Virus record (IMG/VR): IMGVR_UViG_2778261151_000009
Coordinates: 1 to 10,237 of that record
Strand: one strand, 5' to 3'
Source: a virus
Taxonomy: Duplodnaviria; Heunggongvirae; Uroviricota; Caudoviricetes
Length of the DNA stretch: 10,237 nucleotides
Under the pieces are notes generated by a model that had not been told where the DNA came from, made no database searches, and saw nothing but the letters and a program-made list of their open reading frames with translations. The translations under genes and the position numbers were made by a program. Positions 1 to 10,237 of this stretch are shown here, piece after piece. Position 1 is the first letter of the stretch. Each line of letters starts with the position of its first letter.

Positions 1-296
1 CGCGTTGTTTCCGGTATATCGACTTTGATGTACGGGTTAATTTGTCTGGCGACAGTGGCAAGGTCTTTATTCAGGAGGGCTTTGCATTCTGCTTCGGTAT
101 ACGTTTTACCGAGCATGATGTCTTTTCCGGTGTGTCCGTGGCATACAGTCCATACGCCAACGATATCTTTGTATGGTATGTAGCTGACACCTTCCAGACC
201 ATCGTTACCACCTGGGCCAGTGATGAGCACAGACGCTATGGCAATAGCCCCACCACCAATAGCAACTGCAACAGCCTTGCGTAATGATGGCGACAT
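1..296 (-). CDS. R: SAR endolysin (phage 21 R-like lysozyme), N-terminal ~98 codons only; gene continues beyond window start
   Basis: Absent from ORF track because truncated by the window edge. Minus-strand ATG at 296-294 overlaps the holin stop (TAATG). Own translation: [98 protein letters not shown]. It has a Gly/Ala-rich weakly hydrophobic N-terminal helix (signal-anchor-release type) followed by a lysozyme-like E-x8-D-x5-T motif, and sits directly downstream of the holin. Confidence 0.85.
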
Positions 297-511
297 TATT
301 CACCTCTCGCAGCCTTACGCTTGTCTTCTCTGATTTTGAAGTACAGATTTGTCAGATAAGTCAGGAAGCCCAGAACCAGACTCCCCAGTACACCAATCGC
401 AGCCCACTGTGACGGACTGACCTGATCAAGCCACTGTAAAAACCAGTAGCCAGCACTGCCTGCGGAGGTGCCGTAGGCAATGCCCGTTGAAATTTTGTCC
501 ATGGATTTCAT
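296..511 (-). CDS. S: Class II holin / pinholin, phage 21 S-like (71 aa) with dual-start motif M1-K-S-M4
   Basis: ORF track 296..511. Protein [71 protein letters not shown] has two TM segments and a charged C-terminus. Strong SD (GGAGGTGAGG) upstream; stop overlaps endolysin start. Confidence 0.9.
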
Positions 512-803
512 AGCCTCACCTCCGCAAATAACGGATGGCGTAGTTTTACACTGAGAAATGAAAGGGATTTGAAAAGAAAAAACCGCAAAAGCGGGCGAAA
601 CGATATATACAGTAAGGAAAGCACTCTATCCAACAAACCACTCACAGTTAATCGGAATAAAAGCAGAGTGCTTATGAATGATCGCCTGCCCGAAGGTTAG
701 TATTTCTGCACAGCAATTTTGCAAAAAAAAGCGATCATTCATAACTTAAACGTCTTTCAGTCACTCCGGGATTTCCCATCATCGCAGACTGAAAGACTCT
801 AAC

Positions 804-878
<75 letters not shown>

Positions 879-881
879 ATA

Positions 882-957
<76 letters not shown>

Positions 958-959
958 AC

Positions 960-1036
960 TGGACCGCCACCGGGGACTCGAACCTCGCACACTCAACTTA
1001 AAGGGTTGACGCTCTTTCCTGATGAGCTAGTGGCGG
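960..1036 (-). tRNA. tRNA-like gene, Lys-type anticodon UUU but atypical anticodon loop (C at position 33)
   Basis: Reverse complement CCGCCACTAGCTCATCAGGAAAGAGCGTCAACCCTTTAAGTTGAGTGTGCGAGGTTCGAGTCCCCGGTGGCGGTCCA. Perfect 7-bp acceptor stem, 4-bp D stem, 5-bp anticodon stem (TCAAC/GTTGA), loop CCTTTAA, T-loop TTCGAGT, encoded CCA. Isotype uncertain. Confidence 0.55.
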
Positions 1037-1040
1037 TTGG

Positions 1041-1113
1041 TGGCCCTTGCTGGATTTGAACCAGCGACCTGGCGATTATGAGTCGCTCGCTCTCACCACT
1101 GAGCTAAAGGGCC
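1041..1113 (-). tRNA. tRNA with CAU anticodon; resembles tRNA-Ile2 (lysidine type) more than elongator tRNA-Met
   Basis: Reverse complement GGCCCTTTAGCTCAGTGGTGAGAGCGAGCGACTCATAATCGCCAGGTCGCTGGTTCAAATCCAGCAAGGGCCACCA; anticodon loop CUCAUAA. From memory the body resembles E. coli ileX-type tRNA. Confidence 0.75.
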
Positions 1114-1215
1114 GGGCGCAGGATAATAACGTTACGAAATCAATGTTGCAAGCATTCAAAAATCACCCTTATCTCCTCCACCAGCGCATTCACCATGTCT
1201 ATCCGAGATAAGTGG

Positions 1216-1244
1216 CACAAAAAACCCGCTTGTGGGCGGGTTTT
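1216..1244 (-). terminator. tR'-like intrinsic terminator downstream of the late promoter
   Basis: Hairpin ACCCGC-ttgtgg-GCGGGT (1224-1241) with A-run on plus side (U-run in minus-strand RNA) and T-run on the other side, so potentially bidirectional. About 45-70 nt downstream of the candidate pR'. Confidence 0.6.
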
Positions 1245-1289
1245 GTTTGCTTTTGCCATCACGTAAAAAATCGGCAAAATATCAGATTT

Positions 1290-1322
1290 GCATGAATATA
1301 TGCCTTTCAATCTACTTTTGCA
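1290..1322 (-). promoter_or_regulatory. Candidate late promoter pR' (-35 TTGCAA, ~16-17 bp spacer, -10 TATATT) overlapping the Q-like gene end
   Basis: Minus-strand reading ttgcaaaagtagattgaaaggcaTATATTcatg. Position between the Q-like gene and the terminator/tRNA/lysis block matches lambdoid late-region architecture. Confidence 0.45.
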
Positions 1323-1995
1323 ACACTTTGCTTTGAAAATGCCGTCTTTTTTTTGAACGTGTTCTCATTACAAACAATAAAGCCTCACTATCCAGTCGGT
1401 GAAAAATGTGTTTCATTGCAACCCAGTGACGAGTAAATGTTTTGGACCAGTTTTTAGTTGTCACTCCCGCCAGTAATGCCAGCTCCTGGTATTCATAACC
1501 TTCCCCACCAAAAAGTTCTGCTTTTACTGCCTGCGCCGCCAGCCAGATTAATTTTTTCAGGCGTTCCTGCGTTTTCCCTGCAATTTTTCTGGTACCGGAT
1601 TGAGCATTAAATTCATTCCACGCCCACTGTGTTATCGCGATCTGATATTCCCAACAAATACTCCCGCTGTAACACCACAACAACCAGGCTTTATGATGTT
1701 CTTCAAGAGACAGAACAGCCCGCCGCCACGATGATGTCGAAAACTCAACCGGACTGACCAGAGGAATTGACGTCCCCTTCGCCAGCGATTGCTTTCCCGG
1801 GATTGGTGGATTATCCCGCGTTATCATTTTTCCAGTCACTTCATCGCGGTACCGGATTTTTTTACGCCTGTAACGCCCTGTATCGAACATGGCATTCTCT
1901 TGCCAGGCTTCAAGCTGACCTTTTGTTGCCCCACTCAAATCAGCGGTGGCGATAATGAGCTGCTCACGCACAAACTGTAAATACTGGTTATTCAT
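1312..1995 (-). CDS. Putative late-gene antiterminator Q-like protein (227 aa from ATG at 1995; family assignment by position)
   Basis: ORF track 1312..2001 (its first codon is GTG). ATG at 1995-1993 overlaps the rusA stop as ATGA. Located immediately upstream of the pR'-like promoter, tR' hairpin, tRNAs and the S/R cassette, downstream of rusA. No motif verified by search. Confidence 0.55.
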   Translation of the reverse strand: MNNQYLQFVREQLIIATADLSGATKGQLEAWQENAMFDTGRYRRKKIRYRDEVTGKMITRDNPPIPGKQSLAKGTSIPLVSPVEFSTSSWRRAVLSLEEHHKAWLLWCYSGSICWEYQIAITQWAWNEFNAQSGTRKIAGKTQERLKKLIWLAAQAVKAELFGGEGYEYQELALLAGVTTKNWSKTFTRHWVAMKHIFHRLDSEALLFVMRTRSKKRRHFQSKVLQK

Positions 1996-2351
1996 GCGCA
2001 CCCCAGTTCTGTGATTTTTATCCCCAGCCGCCCACCAGGAACGAGCTGACCGCGCACAATATTGATTTCATCAAACTGCTCGTCGTCTATAAGTAGTCCA
2101 GCATGCGTCAGCGCATCCAGCGGTGCCTTCAGGATATTGTCCAGGTCACGACGGCGCTTATCCGGTGGCTCTGCAATAATCTTTATCGCCAGCCTTCCGG
2201 ACAGGTTTAATTTCAGTCGCTGCTGGCGAACAATTAGCGCCACATCACGGCGATAACGCTCACCGGCTTTTGATACAGTCGCCAGTAGGTGTTCACCGTT
2301 GGCGGGTAAGGCAAAACAAATTCTATGCGTTCGGTCATTTATGCTTTCCAC
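1992..2351 (-). CDS. rusA: Holliday-junction resolvase RusA; N-terminal region apparently frameshifted (possible pseudogene or sequencing error)
   Basis: ORF track protein contains PDKRRRDLDNILKAPLDALTHAGLLIDDEQ and GGRLGIKITELG, matching the RusA catalytic core. The canonical N-terminal motif (MTERIEFVLPYPPTVNTYWR) is in another frame, starting at ATG 2338-2336 right after the upstream stop. Confidence 0.8.
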   Translation of the reverse strand: MESINDRTHRICFALPANGEHLLATVSKAGERYRRDVALIVRQQRLKLNLSGRLAIKIIAEPPDKRRRDLDNILKAPLDALTHAGLLIDDEQFDEINIVRGQLVPGGRLGIKITELGCA

Positions 2352-3397
2352 TTCAGAACACCCGAATTTCTCGCGTGCATTAAAAAACGAATCAGCAACA
2401 ACAACTGACTACCGTGTTTTTCTTCAAAATCTTTTACCCCGGCGTGTAGTTCGTTATGGCATTTACGACACAGCGGAATAACAAACAAATCGTCAGCCTT
2501 TGTTCCCATCCCTCCCAGTCCATGACCAATGATGTGGTGCGGATCATCTGCCTGATTGCCACACGTCATGCATTTCTGCGTTTTTACCCAGCGCGTGTAT
2601 ACAGGCATCTCTTCCCGTTGTGGTTTCTGGCGCTGGAGATACTGAGCCGGAGATTCCGGATCAACGGCAATGCTGACCACCGTCTCTTCCTGTGGTGGAT
2701 TCTGTTGCTGGTGGGCGTGAGGCAGCGGCGCAAGATTTTTTGTGCGCTGCTTCAGTATGCTGGTGGCGGTCTGCTCTCCCGGCACGATGTCGCTTTCACG
2801 GTACATTGAGCGGATTTTTTCCGCACGCAACCCCAGCGAACGACGTAATACCGCTTCCGGTAGCGCGTCCGCCACCTGATTGCGGACCGCCCACCAGGAT
2901 AATTCAGCCAGAGATAATTCACGCTCCTGCGTACCGCTTATTGCGTGACCGATGACGTCAATCATCCATGCTGACAGGTTTTGATGAGCAAGTTGCTCGA
3001 GTGATTCGGATGTCTGGTCACGCAACTGGTTGTCGCAGTGCCAGCACAACACCATTGCGCCGGTACCATAACGGTGAATGACGGTTTCGCTGTGATGATA
3101 ATCGCCGTGTGGCCACTGGCAGGATTTAATATGGCGCAACAGCCAGTCAGACAATGCACCAGCACCACCAGCAGCACGAATCACCCGTGCGTTACTGAAA
3201 AACGGCAGCAATGTTTTGTCTTCCACTAGCGGCTGGCGAACGGCAGGAACGACCCCGGACGGCAGATTACGCATGCTTTTCGGTTCCGGCTCCACCAGTA
3301 CCCGGGTATTGTGGAATACCGGCATGGATTCACGGCCTGGCTTAAGGACCACCAGCCCGAGTTCCGGAACCAGAACAGGTCGAAGTAATACCCGCAC
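2339..3397 (-). CDS. DUF968 / YdfU-like prophage protein with C-terminal HNH-like zinc-binding motif
   Basis: ORF track 352 aa; first codon is GTG overlapping the upstream stop. C-terminus CMTCGNQADDPHHIIGHGLGGMGTKADDLFVIPLCRKCHNELH = CxxC...HH...CxxCH...H. Position between a Rem-like gene and rusA matches Qin-type prophages. Confidence 0.7.
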   Translation of the reverse strand: MRVLLRPVLVPELGLVVLKPGRESMPVFHNTRVLVEPEPKSMRNLPSGVVPAVRQPLVEDKTLLPFFSNARVIRAAGGAGALSDWLLRHIKSCQWPHGDYHHSETVIHRYGTGAMVLCWHCDNQLRDQTSESLEQLAHQNLSAWMIDVIGHAISGTQERELSLAELSWWAVRNQVADALPEAVLRRSLGLRAEKIRSMYRESDIVPGEQTATSILKQRTKNLAPLPHAHQQQNPPQEETVVSIAVDPESPAQYLQRQKPQREEMPVYTRWVKTQKCMTCGNQADDPHHIIGHGLGGMGTKADDLFVIPLCRKCHNELHAGVKDFEEKHGSQLLLLIRFLMHARNSGVLKWKA

Positions 3398-3398
3398 A

Positions 3399-3677
3399 TT
3401 ACCTCCAGATCCGTTGCTGGAACGTGCAGGACGGACGCGGTGGCCGTTCGGAATAAGGGAGCCTGACGAAGATTATCCAGTGACGATAATCGAGACTGAG
3501 GGCTTTCTTAATCTCGTATCCGTGTCTGCGGTAGCGCTGAATCAGCCATTCAGCCTGTTCTTCGGTGCAGGGGTCGTGCTGATACCAGTCAGATTTGAAT
3601 GCATGAGAACGCCGCCCGTGCCTGCTGGCAGGGGCGGCAGAGTTATCCGAATTGTAAAATTTGGTATCGTGCGCCAT
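3399..3677 (-). CDS. Small conserved prophage protein (Rem-like position), ~92 aa from internal ATG
   Basis: ORF track gives 3399..3806, but codons 1-43 are translated through the hok terminator hairpin and U-tract (3745-3776). ATG at 3677-3675 is the first start downstream of that terminator. Start and identity uncertain. Confidence 0.45.
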   Translation of the reverse strand: MAHDTKFYNSDNSAAPASRHGRRSHAFKSDWYQHDPCTEEQAEWLIQRYRRHGYEIKKALSLDYRHWIIFVRLPYSERPPRPSCTFQQRIWR

Positions 3678-3744
3678 CTGTTTTCTCTGCTGGCGCAGCA
3701 GGTGCCAGTTGTTCAGGCTGACGGATGGATTGTAAACCAGAACG

Positions 3745-3776
3745 ACCAGAAAAAACAAAACCCGCCGAAGCGGGTT
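3745..3776 (-). terminator. Intrinsic terminator ending the hok transcript
   Basis: 7-bp stem AACCCGC / GCGGGTT (3759-3776) with CGAA tetraloop, followed on the minus strand by UUUGUUUUUUCU. Not U-rich on the plus side, so unidirectional. Confidence 0.6.
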
Positions 3777-3844
3777 AAGTGCGGGTGCGTTGAGGATGCC
3801 TGACACATCAGCGGTGGCGAGGGATTTCTCCCCCGCCGGGTCTC

Positions 3845-4000
3845 TTACTCCTCAGGTTCGTAAGCTGTGAAGACAGCGACCTCCGTCTGGCCGGTTCGGA
3901 TTCGTACCTCGCAGAGGTCTTTCCTCGTTACCAGTGCCGTCACTATGACGGTTAAACAGATGACGATAAGGGCGATTAACATCGCCTTTTGCTGCTTCAT
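3845..4000 (-). CDS. hok: Hok/Gef family type I toxin (51 aa)
   Basis: MKQQKAMLIALIVICLTVIVTALVTRKDLCEVRIRTGQTEVAVFTAYEPEE is a single TM helix plus the conserved Hok periplasmic tail. ORF track extends it in frame to an upstream ATG at 4057. Flanked by promoter, terminator and 5'/3' complementary elements. Confidence 0.9.
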   Translation of the reverse strand: MKQQKAMLIALIVICLTVIVTALVTRKDLCEVRIRTGQTEVAVFTAYEPEE

Positions 4001-4176
4001 AGCCTGCTTCTCCTTGCCTTTCGGCACGTAAGAGGCTAACCTACATGTGTTCAGCATGGATTGAGCCTCAGATTAATGTTAAGCGTCTTGCAGGACGCGT
4101 AATGTTAACTGGGGCTTTTCTCTATCTGCCTTTTGGTGTTCATGCCTGAGACAGATAGCCTCAAGCACCCGCAGTC

Positions 4177-4204
4177 ATTCTACTTAACTAAGATTTCCCT
4201 GCAA
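4177..4204 (-). promoter_or_regulatory. Candidate hok promoter (-35 TTGCAG, 16-bp spacer, -10 TAGAAT)
   Basis: Minus-strand reading tTTGCAGggaaatcttagttaagTAGAATgactgcGGGTGC. Predicted start falls right at the 5' element (4158-4172) that is complementary to the 3' end of the transcript. Confidence 0.4.
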
Positions 4205-4259
4205 ACCGTTTTTGTCCGGCACAGTAAATATCCAACTAAACCAATAGCGTTCGCTGTAT

Positions 4260-4439
4260 TTACCGCCAGTATTCAATGCACATGACCGCCATGAACACCC
4301 CTAAAAAAAGGGCATTTATATGTCCAAACATTAATATCAAAACATCAATTTTTTCCATATACCTTGCTGTGAAGATGATGGGCATACATGATGCGAACAA
4401 CCAGAACGCAACAAACAAAAACTGCAATGCGTTTTTCAT
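4260..4439 (-). CDS. Small hydrophobic membrane protein, possibly a lipoprotein (59 aa from ATG with strong SD)
   Basis: ORF track 4260..4478; Met14 (ATG 4439-4437) is preceded by AGGGGGAATA. Protein MKNALQFLFVAFWLFASCMPIIFTARYMEKIDVLILMFGHINALFLGVFMAVMCIEYWR has a signal-like N-terminus ending in a lipobox-like FASC and a second hydrophobic helix. Lies in an AT-rich island. Confidence 0.5.
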   Translation of the reverse strand: MKNALQFLFVAFWLFASCMPIIFTARYMEKIDVLILMFGHINALFLGVFMAVMCIEYWR

Positions 4440-4651
4440 TATTCCCCCTACAATCAATGTGCAATAACATTTAAACACACCTCAATTTGGCCGGACATAT
4501 AAATATCTAAACCAGAAAAAATCACTTACATAGCGTTACAAACTCTTTAGTCTAAATACTCATCGTAAAACATTCCCCATACTTATCAGTCCGTTCCGCG
4601 CCAGGTAGCTTATTGCCTTATCTGGCAACCTATAATCAGGTTTCCGCTTTT

Positions 4652-5074
4652 TCAGTTGGCTGGTCGTTTAACCGACATAGTTAACCCATTAATCTGGTTG
4701 CCGGATGCTGGTGGATTTTCGCGTTTTAGTTGTTCATAAAAGTGCACAGCTTTAACCAGTTCTTCTGATGTAACCGGGACTGGTGGGGCAGTGAATAAGG
4801 CCTGAATTTCATAGTTCGGCCTGTCGTTACAATCCTCTTTTTTCGGTACATATTTCCAGTCACCAACCCACAACTCCCCCTGAGAGTCCATAACACCTTT
4901 TTTCACGTAGCGATATCGCCACGCTATCGGCTCTGCTTCCAGCGATGCCCGTGCAATTTTGAATAACTCGCCCTCTACTCGCGCCATCCCTGAATTGGGG
5001 TGGCATTTCGTAATCGCTATTTTTAATTTGGCTTCTTCGATTAATTGTTCTTTTGTTAATTCAGTCATTTTCAT
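4652..5074 (-). CDS. Hypothetical phage protein (140 aa)
   Basis: ORF track; ATG start with second Met at codon 3. Upstream has AGGAGG followed by a CCGCC-TGAAAG-GGCGG hairpin. No family recognised. Confidence 0.6.
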   Translation of the reverse strand: MKMTELTKEQLIEEAKLKIAITKCHPNSGMARVEGELFKIARASLEAEPIAWRYRYVKKGVMDSQGELWVGDWKYVPKKEDCNDRPNYEIQALFTAPPVPVTSEELVKAVHFYEQLKRENPPASGNQINGLTMSVKRPAN

Positions 5075-5164
5075 TACCGCCCTTTCAGGCGGCCTCCTGA
5101 TGTTCTGAGGGTGCAGAAATCCCTCCGGTTAAGGATTAAATTTTATTTGCTGTGCTAAATTTAA

Positions 5165-5620
5165 TTATTCAGTTTTTATTCCTGCTCTCAAAACAGCCTC
5201 TGCCATTCTGATATCCGGATTTTCTGAAATCATCTTTTCCGGCGAGTCGCAATCACCACCACATTCAGTTATGCGTTCATGACCAAAACGAATTGTGGTT
5301 TTGTGCGCATTAATCATTTGTGTAAGCGCATCTGTCAATTCTGCAATGCGTTTGTCTTTAACTTCCAGCTCTTTCAGTAAAGCCAGTACGTCAGGATCGC
5401 TAACATCAACGACGGTTACGCGCGATTTCAGGTAATGCTCATCCGCAAAAGTTCGACCAGTTTTAAAATATCCATCATCCCCCTCACCTGTGCAGGCATA
5501 CACAATATGCGTTCTGGAAAATATGCGCTGTATCGACATTTCATCGCCACAAACAGGACATTCCGGCACCTGAATTGGTGAATAACGTTCACGTAATGCC
5601 TGGTAATTAGTCTTGCACAC
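5165..5620 (-). CDS. Hypothetical protein with zinc-ribbon-like Cys motifs and a coiled-coil segment (151 aa)
   Basis: ORF track; GTG start preceded by TTTTCAGGAGA. CPVCG...C and ECGGDCD motifs; LKELEVKDKRIAELTDALTQM heptad-like stretch. Overlaps the upstream gene by 14 nt. Confidence 0.6.
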   Translation of the reverse strand: MCKTNYQALRERYSPIQVPECPVCGDEMSIQRIFSRTHIVYACTGEGDDGYFKTGRTFADEHYLKSRVTVVDVSDPDVLALLKELEVKDKRIAELTDALTQMINAHKTTIRFGHERITECGGDCDSPEKMISENPDIRMAEAVLRAGIKTE

Positions 5621-5912
5621 TGGCTGTCTCCTGAAAAATCACCGCATGCCCCAGTTTCTCCGCCAGCGCCAGTTCTGCCTTAGCGCCTGCTGACCGCTGC
5701 CAGCCTTTCAGCATGTAAATCGCATCCACACAACGAATCATCGCCATGCAGATATCCATGTACTGCGGCTGTGTCAGCCCGTCCGGAAGTACTGCCGGGT
5801 TTAAGACGGTATGCCCTTCCCGTTTCAGTTCCTCTTCCGCATTGTGAAACGCCTCACGGTTGAAATTTTTATACCCGGTCATTGGACCGGCGATATAGAC
5901 TCTCACCCTCAC
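5607..5912 (-). CDS. DUF4406-like protein (nucleoside 2-deoxyribosyltransferase-like fold family), 101 aa
   Basis: N-terminus RVYIAGPMTGYKNFNREAFHNAEEELKREGHTVLNPA matches the characteristic YIAGPMTG...NF...F...G..V.NP signature. GTG start overlaps the upstream stop (GTGA); SD AGGAGG 7 nt upstream. Confidence 0.7.
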   Translation of the reverse strand: MRVRVYIAGPMTGYKNFNREAFHNAEEELKREGHTVLNPAVLPDGLTQPQYMDICMAMIRCVDAIYMLKGWQRSAGAKAELALAEKLGHAVIFQETASVQD

Positions 5913-6331
5913 GCCATCACCTCCTGAAAATTACCCTGATAAAACGACAATATGCGCTGCATAACTTCGCTCTTCCGGCACTCGCGACAGATTATGTTTA
6001 GGCGACTGTCGTAGCGACGTATTTCTCCGTCAGGTAATGACCAGATAAGGTCCGGATCAACCGCAGATGGTTTCTTCAGCTTTGCCCTTGAGAGCTTTTT
6101 ACGAGCATTTTGCCAGTCCTTACGCGCCTGTTCAGACGGGAATAACCCGTAACCAGAGTTGTATACATCGCCACTGGCAACCAGCTCTCTGGCCAGAATG
6201 CTCATCAGATATCTTGTTGCCCCAGTTTTAGCTTCCAGTTGTCGTAACGTCTCGCGCCCACTCTGGCGTACGAGTTCAAGAACCTGCCCTTTAATTTTTT
6301 CCCGCTCTTCTTGTGTAAAAACTTTTGCCAC
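5909..6331 (-). CDS. Hypothetical protein (140 aa), possible winged-helix N-terminus
   Basis: ORF track; GTG start with SD AGGAGGG 4 nt upstream. No Walker A motif, so not an obvious DnaC-like loader. Confidence 0.6.
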   Translation of the reverse strand: MAKVFTQEEREKIKGQVLELVRQSGRETLRQLEAKTGATRYLMSILARELVASGDVYNSGYGLFPSEQARKDWQNARKKLSRAKLKKPSAVDPDLIWSLPDGEIRRYDSRLNIICRECRKSEVMQRILSFYQGNFQEVMA

Positions 6332-6371
6332 AAGCCCTCCTGAAAATTACCTCATGACCAGAAATTAACAC

Positions 6372-7442
6372 TTACCCCCTGAAGCCCGGCGGAATTTCGT
6401 TATCCGGTTCAGAAATATGATTCACACAACGCTGGTTGTTCGTGCCGCTTACCGGGAGCAACCAGGGGTTCTCAAAATTCCGGTCCGGTCCAAAAAACGT
6501 CGTCGCTCGCTGAACAAATTCCGTTCCCGTTTTCCCGGTAGCCGCCAGGTATCTTGCGTAACGCCTCACGCCATCCAGCATGGCCTCTGGTGGCACCCCC
6601 TCGCGTAATCTGGCCTTCCAGGCACTGAAAGCGGATTTCTTCGGGTTTGCCCCGGCACGCAACGGGTACTCCCGCCAGACCTGTTCGAACACATCCGGAT
6701 AATCCACTCGTCCCACAGACTGCCCGGTGTTTTCCGGGACTACCCGATCGGCTTCCCGCTGAATGGCGGAATCGGCTTCAGGCTGCTGCAGTTGGTGTGA
6801 TTGCTCCGGACTTGCGGTCATCACCTGCTGCACAGCGCCCGAATCGGCTTTCAGCGCATACGCTGAATCGGCTTCCGGTGTCGTGCCTGCTGGCTGACCA
6901 GGATTGACGGTCTGAACATCCCCTGCCTGGTTCGTGGCGTTTTTTACGCCATGGACCATAGTGTTTTGATCTTCTTGATCTGTATCTTTATCTGTATCTT
7001 TATCTGTCGTGACTCGTCGTGACATGTGCGTGACATATCGTGACGCGCCGTGACAATCGCCATTTTGTTCCCGCTTTCTTTCCCTCTCTCGCTGCGCCCT
7101 CTTGCGCTCTGCAGGAGATTTTGCGGTTTGCGAAATATTGCCGTTGTCCTCTTTCAGCACCTGGCGTTTTTCCCATCCAGTGATTAAATCACCATCAAGT
7201 ACCCGCCCCTGCATCGTCTGCAAAATTGAATCAATTACCTCTTCTGTCACGTCGAGCGCACTTGCCAAATCTTCTGTCGTGACATCAATGTGACCTCGCG
7301 TGACATTTCGTGACGCGCTCACCAGGAGGTGGATATACACTGCCATCACTGTTGCAATTGGCTGCCCTGACACCCTGGCAATTGTTCGCCACTTAGGGTC
7401 ATTTGGCATGTCATGCCATAATCTGAGCCAGGCGTTAGCCAT
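6372..7442 (-). CDS. Putative replication initiator (O-like: N-terminal HTH, low-complexity linker, C-terminal domain) with iteron clusters inside the coding sequence
   Basis: ORF track 6372..7448 (GTG); ATG at 7442-7440 has SD AAGAGGTGA. Position after Cro-like and YdaT-like genes. Acidic repeat linker TTDKDTDKDTDQEDQ; basic stretch KRAQRERERKRE. Two clusters of CGTGAC direct repeats at helical-turn spacing inside the gene. Confidence 0.65.
   Translation of the reverse strand: MANAWLRLWHDMPNDPKWRTIARVSGQPIATVMAVYIHLLVSASRNVTRGHIDVTTEDLASALDVTEEVIDSILQTMQGRVLDGDLITGWEKRQVLKEDNGNISQTAKSPAERKRAQRERERKREQNGDCHGASRYVTHMSRRVTTDKDTDKDTDQEDQNTMVHGVKNATNQAGDVQTVNPGQPAGTTPEADSAYALKADSGAVQQVMTASPEQSHQLQQPEADSAIQREADRVVPENTGQSVGRVDYPDVFEQVWREYPLRAGANPKKSAFSAWKARLREGVPPEAMLDGVRRYARYLAATGKTGTEFVQRATTFFGPDRNFENPWLLPVSGTNNQRCVNHISEPDNEIPPGFRG
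7008..7054. repeat. Iteron-like cluster 1: five direct CGTGAC repeats at 10-11 bp spacing
   Basis: Copies start at 7008, 7018, 7029, 7039 and 7049, immediately preceded by a tandem 12-bp repeat ATCTGTATCTTT x2.5 (6978-7013). Confidence 0.6.
7246..7314. repeat. Iteron-like cluster 2: CGTGAC at 7278, 7299, 7309, variant TGTGAC at 7289, inverted copy GTCACG at 7246
   Basis: Same hexamer and 10-11 bp phasing as cluster 1, about 225 bp away, within the N-terminal coding part of the initiator gene. Confidence 0.55.
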
Positions 7443-7513
7443 ACTCACCTCTTTTGATACCGAATCTTTTTACTCACAAATTGCCGGAAGTGATCCGGTA
7501 TGAATATTGCGAG

Positions 7514-7939
7514 TCAATGCACAGCCACAATATTTCCTGCAGGGCCACCACGATTCATCTGGTTGAAACCAGCGATCGCCACTGCGACAAAATCATCAGC
7601 GTCTCTCACCAGTCGTTCCCGCGTCTCCACTAGTTCCCGAAAATAGGCTGAGCTATGGCTGCGCATTCGGGCCACCAGCAGAGGTGGCATTGCTTTTTCG
7701 ATAGCTGGTAACAACGCCTGAATTTTTTTAAGCGCATCAGGGGGGTCTTTCTCCACCCAGCGGAAAATTTTCTGAGTATTGCGAGCCAGGGCTTCCGGAT
7801 GGCTGTCGTCATACAGTTCCGGGAACGTCATTCCCAGCTCGAAATACGCTTTGGTAATTTTCGCAGCCGGTACTTTTTCGCCGTCCGGATGCGCCCAGGC
7901 ATTCATCGCCATGCGGATGTGTTCATGCTTGATTTTCAT
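7514..7939 (-). CDS. YdaT-like protein (position equivalent to CII in lambdoid early operons), 141 aa
   Basis: ORF track; ATG overlaps Cro-like stop as ATGA. Sits immediately downstream of the Cro-like gene. Family name from memory of Rac/CP-933P YdaT, not verified. Confidence 0.5.
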   Translation of the reverse strand: MKIKHEHIRMAMNAWAHPDGEKVPAAKITKAYFELGMTFPELYDDSHPEALARNTQKIFRWVEKDPPDALKKIQALLPAIEKAMPPLLVARMRSHSSAYFRELVETRERLVRDADDFVAVAIAGFNQMNRGGPAGNIVAVH

Positions 7940-8190
7940 GAATCAACTCCCATCAGCTTTTTCGTAGTAGTTTTATTCCTGCCAATAGTTAAAATTGCAT
8001 CGGCAGAAAATAATCCGTTTGATGCAAGAGCGATTTTTTCAGCGTAATTTGTTTCGCCGGTATATTCTGTGCGAGGCAATTTTCCGTTATCCATCCATTT
8101 ATAGATTGCTCTTTGGCTGACACCACAAACGTCGGCCACAACAGCAACGCGAACAGTTTTGATTACATCTTCAAGTGTTTTCTGGTTCAT
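7936..8190 (-). CDS. Cro-like HTH DNA-binding protein (84 aa from ATG 8190)
   Basis: ORF track 7936..8262, but the ATG at 8190-8188 has SD GAGGGTG 6 nt upstream. HTH signature VVADVCGVSQRAIYKWMDNGKLP. Divergent from the repressor gene. Confidence 0.7.
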   Translation of the reverse strand: MNQKTLEDVIKTVRVAVVADVCGVSQRAIYKWMDNGKLPRTEYTGETNYAEKIALASNGLFSADAILTIGRNKTTTKKLMGVDS

Positions 8191-8269
8191 ATCACCCTCA
8201 CAATGTGAACTTTGAGTACATGCTATAACAGAACTGACAGTACATTCAAGAGCGAATATCATTGAACTT
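8191..8269. promoter_or_regulatory. Divergent promoter/operator region between the Cro-like and repressor genes
   Basis: Repressor-side promoter: -35 CTGACA (8234-8239), 17-bp spacer, -10 TATCAT (8257-8262). Cro-side: -35 TTGAAT (plus 8244-8249), -10 TATAGC (plus 8222-8227). Two AACnnnnAGTACAT motifs at 8208-8221 and 8232-8245. Confidence 0.55.
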
Positions 8270-8689
8270 ATGGTTCATGAAGATAAAGCGCGTAAAGAGT
8301 TCGCCAGTAGGCTTGCGCTAGCCTGTGAAAACGCTGGTTATGAACAACATGGAAGGCAGGCAGAAATTGCCCGTCGAATGAAATTAACACCAAAAGCGGT
8401 TAGCAAATGGTTTAATGGCGAAACAATTCCTCGCCGGGAGAAATTAAGGGAATTAGCAACACTAATAGGAACAACACCAACCTATCTTTTGGGAGAGGAT
8501 ACAGAAGAAAGTGGACAGGTACGTTTCTATCAGGAGTTAAATCCAAGACAAAAAATCATCATTGACCTTCTGGACGAGCTCCCTGACAGTGAGACAGATG
8601 AACTTTTAAAAACTCTTGAAGAGAAAAAACAGAAGTACAATGCAATTTACGAAGAGTTAGCACGAAAGAAAAAACAAAAAGCCTCTTAA
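8270..8689 (+). CDS. CI/DicA-like XRE-family repressor lacking a peptidase domain (139 aa)
   Basis: ORF track; HTH GRQAEIARRMKLTPKAVSKWFNGETIP; C-terminal acidic/coiled segment. Divergent from Cro-like gene. No SD, with -10 placed about 7 nt before the ATG, suggesting a leaderless mRNA. Confidence 0.8.
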   Translation: MVHEDKARKEFASRLALACENAGYEQHGRQAEIARRMKLTPKAVSKWFNGETIPRREKLRELATLIGTTPTYLLGEDTEESGQVRFYQELNPRQKIIIDLLDELPDSETDELLKTLEEKKQKYNAIYEELARKKKQKAS

Positions 8690-8759
8690 ACCAGCATAAA
8701 TCCGGTAGCGCCTTCCTCCGGGTTTGTGCTTCACTTTATCCCATCTCATTTTTTTACAC

Positions 8760-8810
8760 ACAAAATGTACTATAAGTACTTTACAACAATGAACGCAAAG
8801 TACATTATAT
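8760..8810 (+). promoter_or_regulatory. Operator/promoter region upstream of the ydfA-like operon
   Basis: Near-palindrome ATGTACT-ATA-AGTACTT (8764-8780) and AACgcaaAGTACAT (8791-8804) overlap a candidate promoter (-35 TTTACA 8779-8784, -10 CATTAT about 8802-8807). Confidence 0.45.
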
Positions 8811-8986
8811 ACCTGCCACCCACCCCGCCCCACAGAATGCAGGGCAATACTTCGAGTTACCAGGCAGTGGTCAGGGGTTAAGTAGCCAGCCCGAGGCGTA
8901 AGAACATGACGGCAGGGTTCAACTTTAATAACTATGCAGCAGGTTTTTGTTCCGCTACCCCGGCGTTAAGGGGAAATGAGGTCAGC

Positions 8987-9142
8987 ATGGATACTATCGA
9001 TCTTGGCAACAACGAATCTCTGGTGTACGGCGTGTTTCCCAACCAGGACGGCACCTTCACCGCAATGACGTATACCAAAAGCAAAACGTTTAAAACCGAA
9101 TCTGGAGCGCGTCGCTGGCTGGAAAGAAATTCAGGTGGGTGA
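8987..9142 (+). CDS. ydfA: YdfA-like small protein (51 aa)
   Basis: Internal ATG of ORF track 8906..9142 with SD GAGGT 4 nt upstream. Protein MDTIDLGNNESLVYGVFPNQDGTFTAMTYTKSKTFKTESGARRWLERNSGG. Size and position after the DicA-like repressor match Qin ydfA (from memory). Confidence 0.6.
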   Translation: MDTIDLGNNESLVYGVFPNQDGTFTAMTYTKSKTFKTESGARRWLERNSGG

Positions 9143-9143
9143 T

Positions 9144-9272
9144 ATGGATTTCGACACAATCATGGAAAAGGCTTACGAAGAATACTTCGAAGGCCTTGCC
9201 GAAGGCGAAGAAGCTCTCAGCTTCAGCGAATTTAAACAGGCGCTTTCCAGTTCGGCAAAATCTAACGGCTGA
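9144..9272 (+). CDS. ydfB: YdfB-like small protein (42 aa)
   Basis: Not in ORF track (too short). ATG 9144 with SD AGGTGGG; own translation MDFDTIMEKAYEEYFEGLAEGEEALSFSEFKQALSSSAKSNG. Start 1 nt after the ydfA-like stop. Confidence 0.6.
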   Translation: MDFDTIMEKAYEEYFEGLAEGEEALSFSEFKQALSSSAKSNG

Positions 9273-9300
9273 TAAGCGAAACAGCACGCGAGGAATCAGT

Positions 9301-9411
9301 ATGCAGAAACGAGAACCCGTCATCATCGCGCCAGACTATACCGATGATGAACTTTATGAGTGGATTTTGGCGGCATCAGTTTCATTGCTGGCTGATGTCC
9401 GCCCTTTTTAA
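9301..9411 (+). CDS. YdfC-like short ORF (36 aa), uncertain; its 3' end is the DicF-like hairpin
   Basis: ATG 9301 with SD GAGGAA; own translation MQKREPVIIAPDYTDDELYEWILAASVSLLADVRPF. The coding sequence runs through the terminator hairpin, so it may be truncated or partly non-coding. Confidence 0.35.
   Translation: MQKREPVIIAPDYTDDELYEWILAASVSLLADVRPF
9357..9409 (+). ncRNA. dicF: DicF-like sRNA (processed 3' end of the ydfABC transcript) with intrinsic terminator
   Basis: GGCGGCATCAG...CTGATGTCCGCC hairpin (9369-9403) followed by TTTTT. Sequence and position after ydfC resemble E. coli DicF (from memory); 5' end not determinable here. Confidence 0.55.
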
Positions 9412-9591
9412 AGTGAATTTTGTGATGCGGTGAATGCGGCTCAGCGCACGCGGAACAGTTAAAACAGTAAGGAAAATCCCTTATTCCGGCGTTAATTATT
9501 AACTGGTTAACGTCACCTGGAGGCACCAGGCACCGCATCAACAAAGTTCACTTCGGTGATGAAAGGTAAGAGAAAATGTTGAATGTAGCTA

Positions 9592-9703
9592 TTGAAAACC
9601 AGAACGGGTGGAATTATAGTGCACCTGCACCTCATAAAACGGGTGCCGGGCGTGGAAACCCGAAATCATTCACGGCGCATAACCGCGCTCAGGCGGTTTT
9701 TTT
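9592..9703 (+). promoter_or_regulatory. Promoter-terminator unit: -35 TTGAAA (9592-9597), 17 bp, -10 TATAGT (9615-9620); terminator hairpin ACCGC-gctcag-GCGGT plus T7 (9682-9703)
   Basis: Near-consensus sigma70 elements followed about 60-75 nt later by a stem-loop and seven T. Could be a small RNA or an attenuating leader for the Rha-family gene. Confidence 0.4.
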
Positions 9704-9872
9704 ATGCGTTAAGCACAGCCACATTCGCATTATGGTGGGGCGTGCAGGGCAACCGCAAGGCTGGCCGGGTTCCGTGATGACCGGTATTTCCACCCCTGTA
9801 CGTCTCACCACCCTTATGGTCGTGGAAAACCTCGGTGGTGAGTTAATCAAATTCATCGCGGAGGCTGCCATC

Positions 9873-10237
9873 ATGGCTACTATCCTTACCCTTTCTCACC
9901 CTGACGTAACCATCGAAAATGGTCGCGCTGTCACTACGTCTGTTGCGATCGCCGAGTTCTTTGGCAAACGCCACGAACGAGTGTTGGATAAAATTCGCAA
10001 TCTGGACTGTTCAGCAAAATTCACTGAGCACAATTTTGTGTCGAGCGAATACACCGACTCAACCGGGCGCAAACTCCCAATGTACCAAATCACCAAAAAC
10101 GGCTTCGTTTTCCTGGTGATGGGCTTCACGGGCAAAAAAGCCGCCGCATTCAAAGAGGCATACATTGCTGAGTTCGACCGCATGGAGGCCGAACTGCGCC
10201 AGAATAACACCCCACCTGCTGACAAGATGATTCCGGG
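9873..10237 (+). CDS. rha: Rha-family phage regulatory protein, N-terminal part; gene continues beyond window end
   Basis: Absent from ORF track (no stop in window). ATG 9873 with SD GGAGG 8 nt upstream. Own translation MATILTLSHPDVTIENGRAVTTSVAIAEFFGKRHERVLDKIRNLDCSAKFTEHNFVSSEYTDSTGRKLPMYQITKNGFVFLVMGFTGKKAAAFKEAYIAEFDRMEAELRQ matches the pRha domain signature. Confidence 0.75.
   Translation, partial: MATILTLSHPDVTIENGRAVTTSVAIAEFFGKRHERVLDKIRNLDCSAKFTEHNFVSSEYTDSTGRKLPMYQITKNGFVFLVMGFTGKKAAAFKEAYIAEFDRMEAELRQNNTPPADKMIP

Follow-up and report, generated by a model that had tools for sequence, protein, structure and literature searches.

Is the hairpin near the right-hand end of this prophage sequence a DicF that inhibits the translation of ftsZ? 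The window, by which we mean the whole stretch of 10,237 nt that was analysed (positions 1 to 10,237 of IMG/VR record IMGVR_UViG_2778261151_000009), was described in a sequence-only reading as encoding a DicF-like sRNA at 9357-9409, in a variant of the Qin dicB operon with no recognisable dicB. We examine here what the element is descended from, what has happened to it, what it is predicted to pair with, and what surrounds it.

The operon

The description of the operon as a variant of the Qin dicB operon holds. A DicA-like repressor gene, ydfA, ydfB, the 5' part of ydfC, a dicF-derived hairpin, and the conserved dicF-dicB spacer follow one another on the plus strand, as do all features of the operon described below. 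The gene for a DicA/CI-like HTH repressor of the immunity region (8270-8689; Pfam HTH_3, 37.9 bits) is at the position of dicA in K-12 Qin, and its homologue in phage Tritos is annotated as a CI repressor. A candidate sigma-70 promoter of the ydfABC' operon (8780-8808; TTTACA-17-CATTAT, 9/12 consensus, a pattern match only) is at the position of the dicB promoter. The next genes, ydfA (DUF1391) at 8987-9142 (Pfam DUF1391, 97.7 bits), with a longer 78-aa form possible from 8906, and ydfB at 9144-9272, each have 97% nucleotide identity to the K-12 gene. Elsewhere in the window, at 3845-4170 and 807-1113 on the minus strand, there are a hok/sok type I toxin-antitoxin system (Rfam sok, 118.9 bits) and a cluster of four tRNAs downstream of the Q antiterminator; the four are annotated as Gly, Thr, Lys, and Ile in the related locus L004.

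Structure and descent of the hairpin

The CCGCC hairpin, the U-run, and the downstream AAAGTGAATTTTGTGATG that had been noted are all present. The terminator scan, the fold, and Rfam place a predicted intrinsic terminator, derived from dicF and of allele class B (see below), at 9369-9409. Its stem, GGCGGCAUCAG/CUGAUG(U)CCGCC in the RNA, is formed by the arms GGCGGCATCAG (9369-9379) and CTGATG(T)CCGCC (9392-9403), with a 12-nt loop and a U5 tail (T5 at 9405-9409). The 57-nt element folded alone gives the same hairpin, with an energy of -21.0 kcal/mol, while that of K-12 DicF is -15.9 kcal/mol. Directly 3' of the U-run, AAAGTGAATTTTGTGATG occupies 9410-9427 and is identical in K-12.

With blastn, window 9366-9550 aligns with K-12 from nt 13 of dicF into the dicB leader, with 82% identity over 185 nt (E 1e-50). 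The Rfam DicF model (RF00039), proposed earlier as a check, gives 43.3 bits on 9355-9404, under the curated gathering score of 48, and the match is missing from the default scan. A poor score had been named beforehand as speaking against a DicF, and the element falls on that side, though narrowly. The shortfall is only 4.7 bits, and the local-search E of 2.8e-8 shows real relatedness to DicF. Canonical copies score 76.7, 72.5, and 71.5 bits, and other non-canonical alleles 39-44. The position in the operon is also that of DicF, 3' of ydfC and 5' of the conserved spacer, colinear with K-12 Qin except for a deletion, and a hairpin with a U-run, as at the 3' end of the 53-nt DicF species, is there at the level of sequence. 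On these alignments, the likeness of the hairpin to dicF is homology and not chance. The claim of a DicF-like sRNA is thus correct as to descent, but the copy is a divergent and truncated allele. The interval assigned to it was also too long on the left, where 8 nt (9357-9364) are ydfC coding sequence and only about 4 nt of the DicF 5' tail are left.

The deletion junction and the fusion ORF

The blastn break points and the alignment place a deletion junction at 9364/9365, where codon 21/22 of ydfC meets the final 4 nt of the 5' tail of DicF. Window 8949-9365 aligns with K-12 ydfA, ydfB, and ydfC as far as nt 65 of the latter, with 97% identity, and the alignment ends there. The sequence at the junction is ydfC …GAG TGG A, followed by the four U's that precede the hairpin. 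The deletion amounts to about 506 bp compared with K-12, and about 825 bp compared with the intact class-B locus L002. Lost with it are the 3' part of ydfC, the intergenic region up to dicF, and the entire 5' tail of the sRNA, its 5' seed included. The 5' end of DicF, made by RNase E according to the published passages on its processing, falls in the deleted part.

As a result of the junction, truncated ydfC is in frame with dicF-derived sequence, in a 36-aa ORF (9301-9411) with the product MQKREPVIIAPDYTDDELYEW joined to ILAASVSLLADVRPF. A GAGGA Shine-Dalgarno sequence is located 7 nt 5' of the ATG at 9301. The ORF reads through the hairpin to a UAA stop at 9409-9411 in the terminator tail, overlapping the end of the U-run, so that transcripts terminated at 9405-9409 would carry no complete stop codon. 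From the same geometry, a ribosome at the end of ydfC' would melt the hairpin. The equivalent gene in junction-bearing E. coli genomes is labelled by PGAP as an incomplete ydfC that is missing its C-terminus.

A 53-mer spanning the junction is found, identical, in 8 of 5426 complete E. coli genomes and in one IMG/VR contig. A public gene index contains the exact 36-aa product in 67 of its blocks, with 100% identity wherever it is found. When window 9140-9440 was compared with six junction-bearing loci (L009, L143, L145, L146, L151, and L153), about 300 bp around the junction proved to be identical, and the flanks had up to 43 mismatches or gaps per 100-bp bin. These six loci represent at least three different replication and immunity modules, that is, prophage backbones, and the comparison took in four junction-bearing prophage arrangements besides that of the window. 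The identical block within diverged flanks indicates a single deletion event, which would afterwards have been moved between prophages by recombination. The sharing of this block across prophage backbones is also a clear case, in its own right, of a small block spreading by recombination.

Predicted pairing with ftsZ and other DicF targets

In the text passages of Balasubramanian et al. (2016; PMC5069750), the 3' region of DicF pairs with the ribosome-binding site of ftsZ, and its 5' end with xylR. We predicted binding as the RNAcofold net energy in kcal/mol, in which intramolecular structure is paid for and which takes no account of Hfq or kinetics. K-12 DicF gives -13.2 with ftsZ, through nt 25-52 and ftsZ -28 to -3, and -15.4 with xylR, through nt 5-15 and xylR +10 to +20. 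These predictions use the DicF regions named in the text of PMC5069750, an agreement at the level of regions and not of residues. With pykA and manX, K-12 DicF gives -14.0 and -13.3, respectively. For the 57-nt form of the window element, the corresponding values are -2.3 for ftsZ, -7.1 for xylR, -6.0 for pykA, and -3.4 for manX, and for the 45-nt form they are -1.2, 0, 0, and -2.6.

The terminator hairpin of the window element stays closed in the ftsZ cofolds inspected, with net energies of -1.2 to -3.1 kcal/mol. All alleles with the canonical loop fall between -7.3 and -13.5 kcal/mol on ftsZ. The class-B alleles with the 5' tail TTGATTACC and the deletion copy are all at about -3, and class-B hairpins with other 5' tails reach -8.3, with the Shine-Dalgarno sequence untouched. 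In raw duplex energy with the ftsZ leader, 76% of dinucleotide shuffles do as well as the window element, compared with 7% for K-12 DicF, and so the base-pairing that had been proposed as a check is no better than that of shuffled sequence.

The ftsZ-pairing residues of canonical DicF, ACUCCG...CUGCUCUGCC, are replaced in the window by AUUGCUGG...CUGAUGUCC, and the 3' region is predicted to have no complementarity to the ftsZ ribosome-binding site. The single-stranded 5' region UUUCUGGUGACGUUU, which pairs with xylR and pykA, has been deleted, and only UUUU is left before the hairpin. The 5' seed and the ACUCCG/CUGCUCUGCC residues are both gone, the predicted net energy with ftsZ is -1 to -3 kcal/mol where it had been -11 to -13, and the proposed inhibition of ftsZ translation is not supported. 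A search within the window for a cis target of the hairpin loop gave nothing above the level of shuffles except the antisense of the loop itself.

Allele classes at the dicF position

For a survey of alleles, a conserved 26-mer that starts in the terminator tail was used to retrieve 133 loci, in viral contigs and in species-representative genomes. Adding the E. coli loci collected before brings the total to 140 occurrences, and the 58 nt 5' of the 26-mer were compared. The dicF position is polymorphic, with at least six discrete hairpin classes and three classes of 5' tail (loci L010-L142). Class A is canonical DicF, with the loop ...UUUUACUCCGUGACUGCUCUG..., and is present in 3967 of 5426 complete E. 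coli genomes. Class C, with the loop ...UUUUUUUCUUGAAGUUCGGCUGAUGU..., is present in 1676 of the 5426 (31%), mostly followed by ydaE; it (…UUUUUUUCUUGAAGUUCGGCUGAUGUCCGCC) scores about 39 bits on the Rfam DicF model and is without predicted pairing to the ftsZ Shine-Dalgarno sequence. Class B is the window allele, with the loop ...UUUCAUUGCUGGCUGAUGU...; with its own 5' tail it is found in 84 of the 5426 genomes (about 1.5%), and the same hairpin with an intact 5' tail is present in L002 (E. coli Br_190_kylling) and in SE11. There are several rarer classes besides. The 5' tails UUUCUGGUGAC, UUGAUUACC, and GUGUAGUC combine variously with the hairpins.

What the 23 distinct alleles have in common is the five-pair GGCGG/CCGCC clamp and the U-run, with one compensatory change of C-G to U-A. 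RNAalifold over all alleles recovered the 5-bp clamp alone. The upper stems differ from class to class, so that one compensatory pair is all that covariation offers as an argument across the family. Variants within class B keep the stem through G-U changes and keep the motif UUGCUG.

The Rfam threshold catches the canonical allele only, and about a third of E. coli genomes have non-canonical alleles at this position. In the literature that could be searched, the coverage of which is incomplete, we found no description of these classes. The non-canonical alleles are without predicted pairing to ftsZ, and if they are expressed, then DicF as a regulator of ftsZ is one member of a polymorphic family. 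A broader proposal can be made, for which we would give only low odds, that the dicF slot of lambdoid prophages holds interchangeable cassettes (A-F) with a common clamp and spacer and with differing 5' tails and loops. Only A would then be built against ftsZ, B and C would be undescribed sRNAs with targets of their own, and the deletion allele would be a class-B derivative expressed within a coding region.

The dicF-dicB spacer

The conserved structured spacer, or dicF-dicB leader, extends from 9410 to 9553. Its fold has an MFE of -62.8 kcal/mol (z = -5.76), which no shuffle equals, and a long-range helix with arms at 9410-9432 and 9531-9553 closes a multi-branch structure. The spacer is nearly invariant in comparison with K-12, SE11, L002, and L004, and is more conserved than DicF itself. 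Homology to K-12 ends at about 9541, which is 35 nt short of where the start codon of dicB would be located. A 72-nt form of DicF made by RNase III appears in the published passages on DicF; its 3' end would fall in the 5' arm of the spacer, and the spacer is likely to be an RNase III substrate. The STnc100 model (RF02076) matches the spacer in part, with 33.5 bits against a gathering score of 47, and we rejected this identity. Matches of this kind below threshold occur in every locus tested, including K-12, where the spacer scores 34.4 bits, and the Pas sRNA paper from the STnc100 literature does not mention DicF or dicB. Inside the conserved spacer of L004, at 15039-15122 (about 9462-9545 of the window), PGAP annotates a pseudogene as 'cell division inhibition protein DicB, incomplete'. 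The protein that it would encode (VLWVDSLYPALIVNW…) is unlike DicB, and the annotation is probably an artefact of over-extended DicB models.

Absence of dicB

The earlier statement that there is no recognisable dicB proved correct, within the window and beyond it. A tblastn search of the window with three DicB variants gave a best E of 0.2-0.7. The fusion peptide led us to NCBI assembly GCA_900448845.1 (L144), which is 100% identical to window 3301-10237. There, Rha (window-equivalent 9576-10427) is followed by YdaE, a 137-aa ORF, IS1, RecE, and Gam, and the same three DicB variants again gave a best tblastn E of 0.2-0.7 over the 5.2-6 kb beyond the window. A dicB just past the window edge had been suggested by L004 and L002, which have 98% identity to 9545-10237 and have dicB after Rha, and is ruled out by L144. 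The junction-bearing prophages L145 and L147 do have dicB after Rha. The ATG at 9576 aligns with that of K-12 dicB; we rejected it as a dicB start, since its product has no relation to DicB and the two sequences part company from about 9541 on. No Pfam DicB gene therefore follows the dicF-derived element as in the dicBF operon, and the prophage of the window appears, with pairing taken from the energy model, to lack both a gene for DicB and a DicF that could pair with ftsZ.

The isrK-C4-rha module

What lies to the right of the spacer? The promoter-terminator unit and the Rha-family gene that had been noted to the right of the hairpin are present, the former at 9592-9705. By its match to the Rfam model, the unit is an IsrK gene and is followed by a C4 antisense RNA, neither of which had been recognised. 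The isrK promoter (9592-9620; TTGAAA-17-TATAGT, 10/12 consensus) has a -10 element that ends 7 nt before the Rfam match to isrK. This IsrK-family sRNA gene (9627-9703) matches RF01394 over its full length with 67.7 bits, compared with a gathering score of 50. The terminator scan gives it a terminator with a stem at 9681-9698 and a U-run, so that it has a promoter and a terminator of its own as well as an antirepressor gene downstream. The C4-type antisense RNA, of the P1/P7 immI type (9728-9815), also matches its model over the full length (RF01695, 76.3 bits; gathering score 45), and it overlaps the position of orf45 in Gifsy-1. The second loop of the C4 RNA, 9770-9780, is complementary to 9853-9863, where there is a GGAG 10 nt 5' of the Rha ATG at 9873. 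The predicted loop duplex with this antirepressor ribosome-binding site has an energy of -17.7 kcal/mol, and 2.3% of shuffled loops are as good.

The Rha-family antirepressor gene begins at 9873 and runs off the window at 10237 (Pfam Phage_pRha, 107 bits). Its domain begins just after the ATG at 9873, and in the identical locus L144, the gene ends at about 10427. PGAP and other gene callers start Rha at 9576. From 9873 on, the variable sites per codon position are 48/34/87, as compared with flat distributions upstream of about 10/10/9, 7/8/8, and 12/11/11. Starting at the ATG at 9576, an ORF extends without a stop across the isrK promoter, isrK, and C4 and continues into Rha, and its translation matches Pfam Phage_ASH with 61.5 bits. 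Because the variable sites in 9576-9872 are spread evenly over the codon positions, this Pfam family may have been built on translated RNA genes. As a counterpoint, the frame stays open over 9576-9872, and the indels are multiples of three in 19/20 variants. An AUG at 9732, about +106 from the start of IsrK, corresponds in position to orf45 of Gifsy-1; it shares the reading frame of the Rha ATG at 9873, and no stop intervenes. In the published passages on Gifsy-1, orf45 is a separate upstream ORF.

Proposed origin and function of the element

We suggest that the element is probably a degenerate remnant of a dicF locus in a mosaic Qin-like prophage, which now serves only as a terminator/attenuator at the end of ydfA-ydfB-ydfC'. 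The parent would have been the non-canonical class-B allele, which has only the GGCGG/CCGCC clamp, the U-run, and the downstream spacer in common with canonical DicF and differs from it in the upper stem, the loop, and the 5' tail. An illegitimate deletion would then have fused ydfC at codon 21/22 to the four U's that come just before the hairpin, leaving an intrinsic (Rho-independent) terminator at the very end of the 36-codon ydfC'-dicF ORF. Transcripts from the repressor-controlled early-left promoter would traverse ydfA, ydfB, and ydfC'. They would then end at 9405-9409 or else continue into the spacer and the isrK-C4-rha module, which has a promoter of its own. If a short RNA is set free, it would retain a 3' module of the Hfq type, with a U-rich stretch, a hairpin, and a U tail, a layout typical of Hfq-binding 3' ends. 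Since both seed regions of DicF are missing, such an RNA should not repress ftsZ, xylR, pykA, or manX, and it would probably have no function in trans. The intact 3' module also speaks against a role as a terminator only, because a stable small RNA could accumulate. The presence of the deletion allele in 8 complete genomes, 67 index blocks, and at least three backbones suggests that it is at least tolerated, and it could be selected.

Could the element nevertheless be a working regulator? The view of the sequence-only reading, that a working DicF prevents the translation of ftsZ by antisense pairing in an operon without dicB, has in its favour the homology to dicF, the correct position in the operon, and the Rfam match, which is significant although below threshold. 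Part of that score is fortuitous. The ydfC-derived 5' flank UUUAUGAGUGGAUUUU resembles the canonical UUUCUGGUGACGUUU by chance, and this likeness puts the score slightly above that of intact class B (43.3 and 39.4 bits, respectively). The anti-Shine-Dalgarno ACUCCG and CUGCUCUGCC, which are the K-12 partners of ftsZ -28 to -3, are absent, however, and the hairpin stays closed at a predicted net energy of -1 to -3, whereas canonical-loop alleles form more than 30 intermolecular pairs; the duplex energy, too, is not above that of shuffles. We consider an ftsZ-blocking function highly improbable, and we do not file the element as a working DicF, because it is under the curated score and has neither the 5' seed nor complementarity to ftsZ. 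A different possibility, which we hold to be rather unlikely, is that class-B DicF is a working trans-acting sRNA with non-canonical targets, and that the truncated copy acts through its loop and 3' stem (UUUCAUUGCUGGCUGAUG). Such an RNA would be released from the 3' end of ydfC' by termination and by RNase E cleavage at an A/U-rich site, for example GAAC|UUUAUG or GGA|UUUUGG. The hairpin recurs as a separate, conserved allele in 84 of 5426 genomes, its variants preserve both the stem, by G-U changes, and UUGCUG, and the recombining, discrete classes of tail and hairpin resemble modular seeds more than decay; the intact Hfq-type 3' module and the spread of the deletion allele by recombination fit as well. 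Against this, no target is known or predicted, and no complementarity above shuffles was found in the window or to the four validated DicF targets. The greater stability of the hairpin (-21.0 compared with -15.9 kcal/mol in K-12) would make the loop and 3'-stem residues less accessible, and the class-B 5' tail, the usual position of a seed, is deleted in the window copy.

The 36-aa YdfC' fusion peptide could instead be the meaningful product, with the hairpin merely incidental coding sequence. It has a Shine-Dalgarno sequence (GAGGA, 7 nt 5' of ATG 9301), and gene finders call it in many assemblies. Its C-terminal 15 residues, however, are a read-out of the terminator hairpin, its 100% identity everywhere fits a recent origin and shows no sign of selection, and YdfC is without known function; transcripts ending in the U-run would, moreover, miss the complete stop codon. 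We therefore give this explanation very little credence.

For the window, the result is mainly corrective, in that it would be wrong to call the element an ftsZ-inhibiting DicF. Both of the division inhibitors encoded by a dicBF operon appear to be lost from the prophage. The locus also shows how the early-left operons of prophages are rebuilt by recombination: several backbones share one and the same junction block, and the start of dicB is the insertion site of an isrK-C4-rha module.

Comparison with known systems

Compared with K-12 Qin DicF, the window copy has the same place in the operon, with ydfA-ydfB-ydfC on its 5' side and the conserved structured spacer on its 3' side, and it has the same GGCGG/CCGCC clamp and U5 tail, with 82% identity from dicF nt 13 on and a spacer 3' of the hairpin that is near-identical over most of its length. 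It differs in that nt 1-12, the 5' tail, have been deleted and ydfC coding sequence is there instead, and in that the upper stem and loop come from another allele. Unlike K-12 DicF, it is below the Rfam gathering threshold, it is inside an ORF, it has no dicB downstream, and it has no predicted pairing to ftsZ, xylR, pykA, or manX. The intact class-B loci of SE11 and Br_190_kylling are closer relatives. Their hairpin and U-run are identical to those of the window or one loop base off, that of Br_190_kylling (L002) having one extra U, and their spacer is highly similar. Unlike the window, they have a complete ydfC, the intergenic region after it, and a 5' tail of their own, UGUUGAUUACCUUUU. In SE11, dicB comes directly after the class-B allele, and in Br_190_kylling, isrK-C4-rha intervenes before dicB.

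The downstream module resembles isrK-orf45-anrP of Gifsy-1 in Salmonella and c4-icd-ant of P1/P7 immI. It has its own promoter, a 77-nt IsrK with a terminator, a C4-like structured RNA, and an antirepressor (Rha/AnrP), and the Shine-Dalgarno region of the antirepressor is complementary to the C4 loop. It differs from these modules in being located in the early-left operon, where it replaces or precedes dicB, and in that the AUG at 9732, equivalent to that of orf45, is in frame with the Rha start.
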